Shown here in pieces: positions 17,860 through 22,632 of a stretch of DNA of 22,632 bases. The DNA is from Spongospora subterranea f. sp. subterranea (lineage: Eukaryota): assembly GCA_049724395.1 (NCBI GenBank), contig JAUGWO010000038.1, forward strand, positions 186,001-208,632, in the 5' to 3' direction. The translations under genes and the position numbers were made by a program. Below the pieces are notes generated by a model. It worked only from the letters and a program-made list of their open reading frames with translations, was not told the origin of the DNA and did no database searches. Within the stretch, counting starts at the first letter, position 1. Every line of letters starts with the position of its first letter.

Positions 17860-20800
17860 TTAAATCTTAACATAGAACACATAATAAGAGAGACTTCGGG
17901 TTTCAAATTTGCCTTCCACATAACAGGCTCTGCCGTCGTTCTCCAGGTCGTTGTAATAATACCAACCAGGAATTTTGACGGTTTTTTGACGCAAGATGTG
18001 GTTTTTTGCATAAAAATGTGAACCTGTGTCCGATGTGGATGAGATGCGAGCAACAAGACGCCAGTGGAACCCGTTAGCAGTAACTTGTTCATTACACATC
18101 AGGCTTTCAGATGCACACTCTACTGGCAGCTCGATCAACATGATATTCTCTGGCATTGATATAATCTCGCGAACATCTTTCGTAAGAACCTGGGAACCAT
18201 ATGAATACACAGCAACGGAACATGCTTTCAGCCTCTACCACATCACAGGCCGGGTCTGAGCAAAGTCGGTTGGTCATTTCAAAGGCACCAGCAGATAGTA
18301 GAAGGTCCAAAACCGCCTGCACAGACGAACTCGCAGCTTGTTCCACCATATACTGCCGAATGTTCTATGGAAAGCAAACTTACTGACTGTTAACCTGTTT
18401 TTTCACAAAAGAACATACCAGGATGAACCAGCGCTGGACACCGGGTTTCTGGATGGGTTGTATGTGCCCGTTATGGCAGATAAATGTACGCTGTGGTCGG
18501 GTGAATATTCATATGCCCATCGCAAGACGATTACTGACCTGTACGTCAAAGGATACTTGTTTATAAACATCTTCGGAAGCCTGTTTCAAGAGATGTTCTA
18601 AAACATCGAAAGGATTGCCAAACGCGTTGGCCGCATATAACTTGATATCGTGAATTATCCACGATGTCAGAATTCTTAGTCCTTTCGAAAGCTCTTTCTT
18701 GACGCGGTTCTCTGGGCAGCCTCGACGCTTGCTCAAGTGCACCATCGTTTTGGAGAATATATTCGTGGGGCTGTACTCGTTAGTTTTGATCTATGCCAAA
18801 AAATTAGTTCAAAGAAACTAATACCCGGCCTGCAGCATACATCAATGTAATCAAAAACGGCATTTAAACATTCCAAAATCGTCGTCACATAGCACGTATT
18901 GTTCGTGTGTGCGTAGGATTGATAGGTCACGTGTGGGTCTCGGGAGACGTTTCTACTGCCTTTAGGCCTTCCAAGTTTTGATTTAGATTCTGACTTATTG
19001 GTTAACAATTTTTTCGACGTGTCGGGTGGGCGTCCGTCGTTTTCATATTGCGAACGTTGACGTTTACGATGTGTGACGGCTGAGGACGTGGTTAAAGTAT
19101 GGCATTTTTCAATGCTCCGCTTCCATCGTTCGGCTACACCTGACAATTGTTTCGGTATCTAGACTACAGATGTGGTCTCAGATTGACTTACCGTAATTTA
19201 TCGCTCGCCCAACAAGGACGTCGGCGAAATCCTGCTCCAAAGTCCCAGAAAACAACATCAGAGATGTTAACCCGAAAACCATCGAATTCTTGGTTTCAGC
19301 AATTTGATAAAACATTGAATGCATAGCTTCGATTGGATTGGTATCGTTGCGTGACTTCTCTGCGAACTCTGCATCCATGAATTTCCTTTTACAACGGAAA
19401 ACGAGGCGAGCGACACTCTCTTTTAGCCACCATTCAAACCACATGGCAGCGTTGGGATACGTGACCTAAAAAAATTTAGACAAGGTAGTCCGTTACGCGC
19501 AAATCGCACTTGAAGGGCATCAATAGCGATGTTGAAAGCGTCCTCCATGGGTTCTCGAACAGCTTGCTTTACAAGGTGTAAAAACTGTCCATTGTCCCCC
19601 ATTTCTGATCCGACAATTGCAGAATTCCTACTGATTCTCTCCGCCGAGTTGATGAAGTGCACTTCACAGCCTTTGATTAGACTATTTGCATCCTCTGTCA
19701 ATGTATCAAGACAGCATTGAATTCCCAAATCCCGATAGTAATCGCTCAACACCTACAGCACAGTAAGTGACTATTGAGATTACACCTGTTTATGATTGAC
19801 CTTCACGTATGCTGCTACAAATCCCTGGTTTTGGGCTTTGGAATAATCCATAACTGCCCCACAAAGTTGACGGAACAATGAGACACGGTCATTCATCGTA
19901 AAGTCGCCAGGTTGGCTCCGTAACCGAGACATGATCATTTCAAGCAAAACCACGAAATGAACTCGATGATGCTCGCTGGTGAGCCCGTCAAGCCACGAGT
20001 ACAAAACAGGAACCCACCTTTTGATCAACACGCAGTAAACGGCAGACGTCATCAAGTATCCGTTTTTAAAAAACGAATACGTGACGTCAGAAACGCACCC
20101 TCCACACTGGCGTCCTGTTAGCTCGTTTTGATCGACAAGCCTAGGGAAGAGATGGTTTTGGAATTGGATGGGTCTCGCGCATATCTAGAAAAAAACCTTT
20201 CAATCATGAAGGGAGAAGCAACAGACACGTGCATTCGTGATAAATGCAGGTCATTGGATCGGAGGCTATTTGTGAACGTAGTTTGGAACTGTTTGATCTG
20301 ATCCAATGTTTCGGAAACGCCTGTTGCGTTGATTAGATTAAGAAAACTTTTGTAAACCTATGAAAAAAATACCTGGCAGTGTAATACCTAGTTCCTTCAA
20401 AATCTCCCTGCGAAAGTAGGCGACCCTGCCTTTGTTCCCGAAAGCTGGCGAAATGTGCCGTATTGATTCGGTGGACGGACCCGGAGCTCCAACGATCAGC
20501 TGCATCGCCGTTTTGTTGGGCGCAGCGGAAATAATGTCAACGAGCTTCGCCTTCGTGTACACATCCGGCTTGTTCGTATGTGGGACATCATGTTTGTGAA
20601 TGCCATGATGCAAGATAATGCACCGGTCTTTCAACCAGTGATGAACCCACAAAACCTTGCATTCGCACTTGACATGCTCAAGGTCCATTAAGCAATTCTG
20701 ACAAACACTATAGAGCAAGGAGTTATTTTAGCCTATTCGCAAGTGTAAAACGAACCTCTGTATGATCAGTGATGGCTTATTCTGATTGGGCCGTTTGATA

Positions 20801-21105
20801 ACTTGGCACTCGCTGTTGGAACAGCGGATAAGGCCCGCACAAACTTTGTATTGCAGAGTTATGGCAACATCATTGGTTTTGGGATTAAGTAATTTCTTAG
20901 ATTTTGTGCAGCGAAACTGCCAATGGCTGTATCGCTGCATCAAATTCGCTTTTTCCGACATCCGTTCGAACCTATAACTGCATTCACCGCTGATAGCCAG
21001 TGGAACGCCATCTTTGTCCAGCTGGTGCTCACTACTGTTAACAGGTGAATATGCGAAGTCCTGTTCTTCGAAATCACACGCTTGCCAATCCATTCGCTTC
21101 ACCAT
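17860..21105 (-). CDS. Transposase: GCM-type zinc DNA-binding domain + MULE DDE core + AT-hook + USP (C19)-like peptidase; 11 exons, ~914 aa
   Basis: GT-AG introns at 20708-20755, 20321-20372, 20141-20196, 19753-19800, 19466-19509, 19140-19191, 18791-18840, 18491-18538, 18365-18418 and 18190-18238 leave 2745 nt in frame with no internal stop. Motifs: YKVCAGLIRC..C..RP, HHGIHKHDVP; SDVTY (D at 20086-88), VMDYS (D at 19846-48), GCEVH (CxxH), TNPIEAMH (E at 19328-30); LGRPKG; NNTCYVTTILECL; GSHFYA; WYYYND; YYVFY. Confidence 0.88.
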
Positions 21106-21189
21106 GACGAGAACTGAAATGCGGACATCACGAGGTATTCCCTTCGCCAGATTTTAGTCCGCGCAAAATGTGATATTCCACGTGACGCA

Positions 21190-21474
21190 GTTTCTAGGCC
21201 AGTATGTGCGGCCAGCTTTTGCAGGTTTTGGCCAGCTAGTGCGGCCAGTGAATTCTGTTACACCCTAGTTAGGGTGTGAATTAACTGGCCGCAATCGCTG
21301 GCCTACTTTGATCAATCAGGCCAGTGAATGCGGCCAGTTAATTCACACCCTACCAGCGGCCTACAGAAAACACTGGCCGCACTAACTGGCCAAGAAACTG
21401 CGGCCAGTTAGTGCGGCCAGTGTTTTCTGTACGGTGGGCGCCGGTAGAGGGGATAGGCCGTTTTCTGTAGGCCC
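21190..21474. repeat. Right TIR (reverse complement of left modules C, B and A)
   Basis: C at 21217-21267, B at 21270-21352, A at 21358-21431, then a spacer and the terminal TTTTCTGTAGGCCC (21461-21474). Confidence 0.95.
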
Positions 21475-21956
21475 GTATTTTACTGTGAGGGGGTGATGTG
21501 CGTGGTTCACAGTGCGCGACCCCAACAATCTCGGGCACGGGCCGCGCTCAGTCTCATCTGTGTATTTCCCGGTCCCCTCGTCATCTGAAGCGAACTTTCA
21601 TACTGCATTTAAAGGGTTGGCGTCGAGATCAGTATGGCGTTGGGGAACAGTATCATATTTCATGGGGCCATTGGCATCACCATTGGCGTCGCGTTTGGCT
21701 ATGTGTAAGGGGTATTTGGTTCGCCGTTGCCTTGACCTCACTACGCTTATGGCAGGTGGAAAACCTACCATTGGGGGCAAATCCGAAGGACCCGAGCGTT
21801 TTACGAGAACTTGGAGAAAGAAGCAGCCTCTACCTCTCAATAAAAGGGTGGATCAGTGTTATTAATAAACCGTGCGGCAGTCGGAAAGGGTGATTCTGAA
21901 GAAGTACAAACGACGCCAGTGGACATTGCATCAAATATTAATTCTACAGTATATTA

Positions 21957-22632
21957 TTATTGAAAATATCTCTTCAGATTTGCTTGCTTGTAATCAGCGC
22001 GAAGCTTGACGTAAAGATGGAGTTCTTCTCTGGGGATATGTGATGGCGATAGGGTTGGATCATCAGTGATCAATGATCGAAGACCATCGGCTGGGACGGC
22101 GAACACATTCGCAATATGGCGCAACGTCTCAAACCTGTCAGATACAGCAGGAACATGGAAATCGCGCAAACAATCCTATACAACCGATCAGCCCAGCTGT
22201 TGAAATTATGTTAAATGTACATCAACCTGATATTCGCGAATATCCCTCATTAACAGCAACGCACCGGCATTCGATATCGTATACGATTTCAAATGACCGG
22301 TTATAAGATCGTAGAGGCGGATTCCGAGTATAAGCAGATATTGATCTACAGGTGGCGTCAGCTCAGGAAGGATAACGCACAACAGTAATGAATAATACCA
22401 AGATTCCTCCCTTTTAGAGATTTCAGGACTGAAGCCGTATGATTTTGCATAAAAGTGACCACTTCTGTACACGCCACAGAACAGCCACTTCCATCGGGCA
22501 ACACCGAATCCTCTTTAGGTCGAAAATCGGTTTTTTGCTGAAGACGGCTAAGGGTCTTTGAGCAATACTCAATCCTTACCGCACCTGCGTTGAAGTTATT
22601 TTCTCCTCGATCAATGTAAATACCTTCCACTT
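21957..22632 (-). CDS. SEC10: Exocyst complex component Sec10/EXOC5, 3' part (truncated by the window end)
   Basis: Spliced translation LSRLQQKTDFRPKED..ACTEVVTFM..SLKGRNL|DQYLLILGIRLYDLITGHLKSYTISNAGALLLMRDIREYQ|DCLRDFHVPAVSDRFETLRHIANVFAV...YVKLRADYK matches the conserved Sec10 C-terminus. Confidence 0.88.

Follow-up and report, generated by a model that had tools for sequence, protein, structure and literature searches.

DNA transposons have repeatedly acquired peptidases that act on ubiquitin or SUMO, namely Ulp1, OTU, VTD and UCH. Mutator and Ginger DDE transposases can carry a C-terminal papain-like ubiquitin/ubiquitin-like peptidase of the Ulp1 (C48) or OTU type, often together with a PHD finger (PMC2836005, PMC1702500). 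The element described here has the same layout but a peptidase of another fold, a predicted USP with fingers and a zinc site. A Trichomonas vaginalis protein (XP_001314237.1, cited in PMC2836005) likewise joins a DDE transposase, of the transposase_11 kind, to a peptidase of family C19. Unlike our element, it belongs to an IS4/IS5-type superfamily, is a single protein and has a C19 domain detectable with CDD. Transposon-borne deubiquitinase domains are also known from elements of the rolling-circle kind. The UCH domain (PF00443) of Helentrons is encoded in a separate ORF and is detectable with Pfam (PMC11417382), and the VTD of Helitrons, proven active on ubiquitin and NEDD8, has a different fold (PMC9741609).

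The present element falls in MuDRF (Repbase MuDRF-1_PSt; Cantu et al. 2011), a group with hosts in Puccinia, Melampsora and Coprinopsis that is defined by GCM and DDE within one protein (PMC3164196). In their accessible portions, the text and supplements of that paper name GCM and DDE only, and no peptidase. No USP-fold domain was found described for MuDRF or other Mutator elements in the literature covered (Repbase Reports and subscription journals lay outside the search). The terms GCM, UCH and ubiquitin are absent from the accessible main texts of PMC5751038 and PMC6446971, and no such domain appears in those of a papain-like protease classification (PMC10318531) and a giant-transposon review (PMC6431247). 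The preliminary description of this DNA was not aware of any characterisation of the architecture; none was found for Mutator elements in the literature covered, and the T. vaginalis protein is a precedent for the combination of DDE and C19 (PMC2836005). Ubiquitin and SUMO peptidases on transposases are a known theme; what MuDRF adds to it is a hidden, family-wide predicted USP-fold peptidase, and not a new kind of system.

A MuDRF element in Spongospora subterranea

The window, meaning the whole stretch of DNA analysed, comprises 22,632 nucleotides of Spongospora subterranea f. sp. subterranea (GenBank assembly GCA_049724395.1, contig JAUGWO010000038.1, positions 186,001 to 208,632 of the forward strand). 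In window coordinates, the element and its gene are laid out as follows.

17255..21474, no strand: MuDRF element of about 4.2 kb; the outer ends are approximate, placed by the same short G-rich terminus at both
17255..17553, no strand: 3' foldback TIR with palindromic subunits, carrying a 77-bp internal duplication absent from the 5' TIR
21217..21474, no strand: 5' foldback TIR, complementary to the 3' TIR over 116 nt at 100% and 93 nt at 98%
17860..21105, minus strand: single spliced ORF of 914 aa with 11 exons, 10 GT-AG introns of 44-56 nt and no internal stops
21105-20756, 20707-20373, 20320-20197, 20140-19801, 19752-19510 and 19465-19192, minus strand: exons 1-6
19139-18841, 18790-18539, 18490-18419, 18364-18239 and 18189-17860, minus strand: exons 7-11
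20584..21018, minus strand: GCM DNA-binding domain, aa ~30-158, recognised from a profile of homologues that matches GCM1
19328..20088, minus strand: Mutator-type DDE core (D288, D368, C412-x-x-H415, E510), assigned by conservation in homologues
18946..19050, minus strand: motif conserved in the transposase tail, plus a basic linker containing a GRP motif; shares exon 7 (19139-18841) with the Cys box

The 21-nt TIR subunit occurs 10 times in the window and not once in 100 shuffles. No target site duplication (TSD) was found at the candidate ends, which are approximate, and every 8-11-bp match there falls within the TIR subunits; MuDRF elements are described with a 9-bp TSD (PMC3164196).

The GCM domain was recognised through its relatives. 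A profile of 29 homologues matches mouse GCM1 (1odh) at E 1.5e-16, and the window protein can be aligned to these homologues from aa ~25 onward. The Pfam GCM model is found in 5 of these 29 homologues and gave no match with the window's own exons. Equivalents of the DDE-core residues, the CxxH included, are invariant or at least 90% conserved across the 29 homologues. On the MULE pattern, we take D288, D368 and E510 to be the catalytic DDE, and the GRP motif of the basic linker is presumably AT-hook-like. Because one protein holds both GCM and DDE, the element is classed as MuDRF, the GCM+DDE branch of MuDR/Mutator. The original assignment to a Mutator-type element agrees with the foldback TIRs and the conserved DDE core, and is refined here to MuDRF.

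Splicing and transcripts

Transcripts of the gene are represented by contigs, from which the exon joins were read and which are assemblies, not single molecules. In the oligo-dT rhizosphere metatranscriptomes of one study (n = 2), contigs precisely skip 9 of the 10 introns, and in a second contig set (four runs) all 10 junctions were seen. Runs X1 and X2 are RNA by guess, X15 is of no recorded kind, and X2 and X15 apparently form one data set, leaving about three independent sources. A 1150-nt contig from an oligo-dT run spans 19463 to 18087, starting where the DDE core ends and reaching exon 11, which holds the His, Asn and Asp of the peptidase. Contigs of 2063-2124 nt from X1, X2 and X15 stretch from exon 2 to exon 8 and include the DDE core. 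Single spliced contigs unite the GCM domain with the DDE core and the Cys box. Compared with the window, the transcript contigs show in-frame 6-nt gaps at 19050 and 19599, because of which the transcribed copies may derive from another copy or allele than the one in the window.

Within the peptidase domain, the window gene is interrupted by introns at 18840-18791, 18538-18491, 18418-18365 and 18238-18190; the intron at 19191-19140 lies further 5'. The preliminary description had proposed introns at 19140-19191 and 18791-18840. Both have exactly these boundaries, and contigs skip both, as they do all 10 introns. It had likewise read the peptidase as in frame with the DDE core, and this reading recurs in the single spliced transcript of the contigs and in the intronless homologue P0027. 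That the peptidase is a separate gene was considered and ruled out, as exon 7 encodes both the transposase tail and the Cys box, and the two are joined in spliced contigs and in intronless homologues. Since P0027 is one intronless ORF, the fusion is independent of splice prediction. It is nearly certain that transposase and peptidase are fused in one protein, and the fusion is real, expressed and conserved.

Other forms of the element were also present among the contigs. In X1, X2 and X15, contigs were found in which 20810 is joined to 18280 with 3 other letters between, so that 2529 nt are skipped; these contigs represent a non-autonomous derivative that has lost its interior and is out of frame. 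For the element's 3' end (window 17520-18350), a variant that is about 3-4% different and has a 6-nt gap at 18001 occurs on separate contigs. Its depth in X1 runs to thousands versus about 200 for the gene body. A short RNA present in abundance is one possible source, a large number of derivatives another, but levels of expression cannot be ranked by contig depth.

The C-terminal peptidase domain

The C-terminal part of the 914-aa protein contains the features listed below. Conservation is counted over 23 non-redundant full domains, obtained by dropping 8 redundant cluster members from 31 rows.

17863..18924, minus strand: predicted USP-fold papain-like peptidase domain, aa 628-914, from profiles and a homologue's predicted structure
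18889..18900, minus strand: Cys box with oxyanion Asn636 (21/23) and catalytic Cys638 (18894-92; 23/23)
18245..18478, minus strand: fingers zinc site of C744 and H748 (18478-18464) and C798 and C803 (18262-18245), kept in 21, 12, 23 and 22 of 23, respectively; it spans the boundaries of introns 9 and 10
18013..18018, minus strand: catalytic His863 (18018-16; 23/23) and gatekeeper Phe864 (aromatic in 23/23)
17947..17952, minus strand: Asn885 (17952-50; N/D in 22/23) and Asp886 (17949-47; D/E in 20/23), third and fourth critical residues, at least one of them present in 23/23

In the gene model, the motifs named in the preliminary description (Cys box, zinc ribbon, GSHFYA, WYYYND and YYVFY) lie on the minus strand, in USP order, at the places it had given. 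It had taken the Asp at 17947-49 as catalytic. The position stands, this residue being Asp886, the fourth critical residue, whereas the canonical third residue is Asn885; in USPs either the canonical third catalytic residue or the "fourth critical residue" can be the essential one (PMC10867860).

Mean identity is about 21% across the peptidase domain versus 30% for the transposase. An HMM built from 22 homologous domains, with the window protein left out, scored the window protein at 124 bits versus at most 5 for 200 shuffles. A 21-sequence profile matches USP18 at E 3.7e-6 with the Cys, the His and the Asn-Asp in register (the "ND" of USP18). The sequence-profile matches listed comprise USP18, Ubp6, USP1, USP4 and USP28, with USPL1 not among them. 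Pfam UCH/UCH_1 (PF00443/PF13423) matched 0 of 47 homologues at E <=0.01, 0 of 29 at E 10 and none of the window exons taken singly, and Peptidase_C98 matched no homologue in the same scans of 47 and 29. The domain is unannotated because Pfam UCH and Peptidase_C98 match none of the homologues scanned. With the domain databases missing it, many hypothetical fungal proteins named "GCM domain-containing" probably hide isopeptidases. A match of Pfam Peptidase_C36 to exon 7 (E 0.006, below the cut-off) was set aside as a Cys-box look-alike. In word-indexed protein searches, which are weak evidence, single exons matched nothing and the alignment matched only 2 known rows.

The fold was computed for the intronless homologue P0027, which is 31% identical to the window protein over the whole length and 27% identical in the peptidase domain. 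The AlphaFold2 model of the P0027 domain has a pLDDT of 88.6 and a pTM of 0.88. When it was compared with 48,161 PDB representatives (VIA), the top 35 rows were all USP-family chains (Z 22.4-16.6), and the next fold reached Z 12.9. The best structural matches were USP30 (Z 22.4, rmsd 3.6, 272 aligned), USP11 (22.3), USP12 (22.2), USP2 (22.2) and USPL1 (21.7), and a further structure comparison placed USPL1 at Z 21.6 with rmsd 3.1. In a Foldseek search with the full-length P0027 model, USPL1 took the top three places (E 6e-12 to 1.3e-11), followed by USP18 (1.9e-11). The Atlas's own model concurs with a USP fold. The USP-like fold suggested from motifs alone in the preliminary description is thus recovered in the AlphaFold2/Foldseek check of P0027, and we regard it, on the strength of these models, as almost beyond doubt that the domain adopts it. 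As in the USP family C19 (USP30, USP2, USP18) and in USPL1 (C98), the family combines a right-hand fold with Cys-His-Asn/Asp, a zinc finger and a gatekeeper aromatic (Z ~22). It differs from both in its low identity to them (10-16%) and in having no Pfam match, and it is equidistant from ubiquitin USPs and USPL1. Giant-virus USPs also show structural likeness (TM 0.66-0.78). A scan of viral contigs for relatives gave 27 pattern matches and 0 confirmed cases, and since it gave no relative, this likeness is not taken as evidence of origin.

Distribution and history within MuDRF

With the DDE exon as query, phmmer found 357 matches at E <=0.001, and the census rests on the best 150 of them. Of these 150, 63 are long enough to cover the end region of the transposase; 38 of the 63 continue for at least 100 aa beyond it, and the peptidase domain is present in all 38. 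When held out, 38 of 38 scored at least 15 bits (17-239) on the C-terminal domain profile, versus 0 of 38 for the reversed sequences (maximum 5.5). The remaining 25 of the 63 comprise 21 that stop short of the transposase profile's end, 2 in which the beginning of the domain is visible and 2 that end 29-34 aa later; no clear loss of the domain was seen among these 25 shorter homologues. The preliminary description had spoken of this element encoding its own peptidase. The domain is indeed encoded here, yet it is family-wide (38 of 38 testable homologues listed); the predicted peptidase is a general part of MuDRF and not peculiar to the window copy.

Named homologues, from the 30 of the 150 listed that were looked up, come from Spongospora, Puccinia, Melampsora, Coprinopsis, Mycena, Coniophora, Plicaturopsis, Leucocoprinus, Leucoagaricus and the chytrid Obelidium. 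The closest named one among those looked up belongs to Spongospora, a plasmodiophorid (42% over 767 aa). Taken with the rhizosphere origin of the contigs and the 51-53-nt introns of nearby host genes, this probably indicates a plasmodiophorid host and not a fungal one, unlike the hosts of MuDRF named above. Homologues with the peptidase occur in rusts, agarics, a chytrid, Spongospora and environmental sequences. One domain with an intact active site in every long-enough homologue, from fungi and a protist alike, points to a core role rather than cargo.

Pairwise distances of transposase and peptidase correlate strongly (Mantel r 0.90, reached by 0 of 5000 permutations), a correlation that is also expected from shared host ancestry. 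The two trees have their main clades in common and differ at weakly supported nodes. From these comparisons, a single fusion early in the history of MuDRF is likely, with the peptidase passed on together with the transposase since then.

A scan of metagenomes for relatives gave 1 locus. The intronless ORF of P0027 (locus L001) sits in a compact 3.3-kb MuDRF on a metagenome contig, with foldback TIRs at 18-150 and 3145-3277 and no obvious TSD. Such compact intronless elements, together with the copies in the laboratory mushroom Coprinopsis cinerea, open a direct experimental route to the substrate and to whether transposition needs the domain. A PHD finger was detected in 12 of 29 homologues; in the longer homologues P0074, P0117, P0120, P0130 and P0132 it follows the peptidase. 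The longer agaric homologues have several hundred extra residues without a Pfam match.

Activity, substrate and proposed role

Because Cys and His are retained in 23 of 23 domains at ~21% mean identity, the peptidase is very probably catalytically active. The pseudo-USPs PAN2 and Sad1/USP39, which were met in the structure search, share the USP fold and illustrate how the domain could instead be a passenger or a non-catalytic scaffold; given a Cys and His that do not vary across rusts, agarics, a chytrid and environmental sequences, this is highly improbable.

As to the substrate, an aromatic residue after the catalytic His marks Gly-Gly-cleaving ubiquitin and ubiquitin-like proteases and limits their substrates to those with a Gly-Gly end (PMC7391069). 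The gatekeeper aromatic, the fingers and the zinc site of the family point to a ubiquitin-like substrate, and the chances that ubiquitin is the main one appear about even. Ubiquitin is favoured because the profile matches are ubiquitin-type USPs, not USPL1, and because the nearest named Atlas clusters carry PF00443. The motifs GLxN, QxDxxE, KRF and HxG are not conserved in the family's peptidase domain. No conserved Gln, Asp or Glu was found at model columns 713-718, whose register to USP28 is inferred, and the HxG position has a His in just 4 of 23 domains. As the QxDxxE residues and the HxG His are not conserved, the canonical grip on ubiquitin's tail is missing. The "ubiquitin isopeptidase" of the preliminary description is a candidate activity: the catalytic set is intact, but USPL1 ties with ubiquitin USPs structurally and the ubiquitin-tail residues are not conserved.

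These same features raise the possibility of an active USP-fold deSUMOylase like USPL1, that is, of a second fold recruited for the task that Ulp1 (C48) has in other Mutator and Ginger transposases; it would free the element from silencing by SUMO, or the transposase from inhibition by it. USPL1 provided the top three Foldseek matches, albeit by a slim margin over USP18 and as a shorter target, and by structure it is level with the ubiquitin USPs (VIA Z 21.7 vs 22.4). It departs from ubiquitin USPs at the very features, the ubiquitin-tail Gln/Glu and His, that are unconserved here (PMC8983731). In USPL1 both blocking loops of the USP fold are deleted. In the sequence alignment, the loop before the catalytic His has only 6 residues in 9 of 23 domains, which would also suit a deSUMOylase, whereas the equivalent of blocking loop 1 has 12-40 residues and so is not deleted. 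In Mutator and Ginger transposases, Ulp1 and PHD are likewise located at the C-terminus (PMC2836005). Against this stand the absence of USPL1 from the sequence-profile matches listed and the lack of any match to Peptidase_C98. We consider a deSUMOylase possible but rather doubtful, and it is with equal reserve that the MuDRF peptidases could be seen as an unrecognised, ancient SUMO-specific USP-fold family that belongs permanently to the transposase and would join animal USPL1 as the second USP lineage to cleave SUMO. If this were true, Mutator elements would have taken up Ulp1 and USP, unrelated in fold, for one purpose, the erasure of a single silencing mark of the host.

Cleavage of another Gly-Gly modifier such as NEDD8, or processing of the transposase polyprotein itself, seems unlikely. 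Arg677 is invariant and Arg853 near-invariant, both are family-specific, and they suggest a distinct substrate surface. Two Helitron VTDs also cleave NEDD8 (PMC9741609), and autoprocessing has been proposed for OTU-fused MULE transposases (PMC1702500). The retained fingers, zinc site and gatekeeper aromatic, however, argue for a ubiquitin-fold Gly-Gly substrate and not a linker peptide.

On balance, we lean slightly towards the reading that the MuDRF transposase ends in a predicted USP-fold isopeptidase whose task at the site of transposition is to release from proteins a tag with a Gly-Gly end, ubiquitin being the likeliest. GCM would bind the TIR subunits, and the DDE core would carry out cut-and-paste transposition. 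The peptidase, tethered to the transpososome, would likely strip ubiquitin either off the transposase itself, countering proteasomal turnover, or off nearby chromatin or repair proteins. Protection of the transposase and removal of histone ubiquitin, both put forward in the preliminary description, are candidate roles of this kind. Chromatin is suggested as the place of action because many homologues carry PHD fingers. Removal of the tag would likely let such elements evade the host.

Sequences flanking the element

Variant contigs and loose ends in 15900-17250 suggest that other repeats adjoin the element. A TIR-subunit look-alike (66%) is present at window 16529-16563, and 15172-15308 contains a 58-nt hairpin. 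The plus strand at window ~6000-12900 bears the exons of a P-type cation ATPase, with Pfam Cation_ATPase_C at 12387-12872, and this region includes a near-perfect 160-nt tandem duplication at 9901-10220. On the other side, the 3' end of the host Sec10 (exocyst) gene, whose spliced introns measure 51 and 53 nt, occupies window 21960-22632 on the minus strand and stops some 500 nt upstream of the element. In the interval that separates the two, a spliced plus-strand transcript covers window 21489-21943; it has a 51-nt GT-AG intron at 21705-21755 and is directed away from the 5' TIR.
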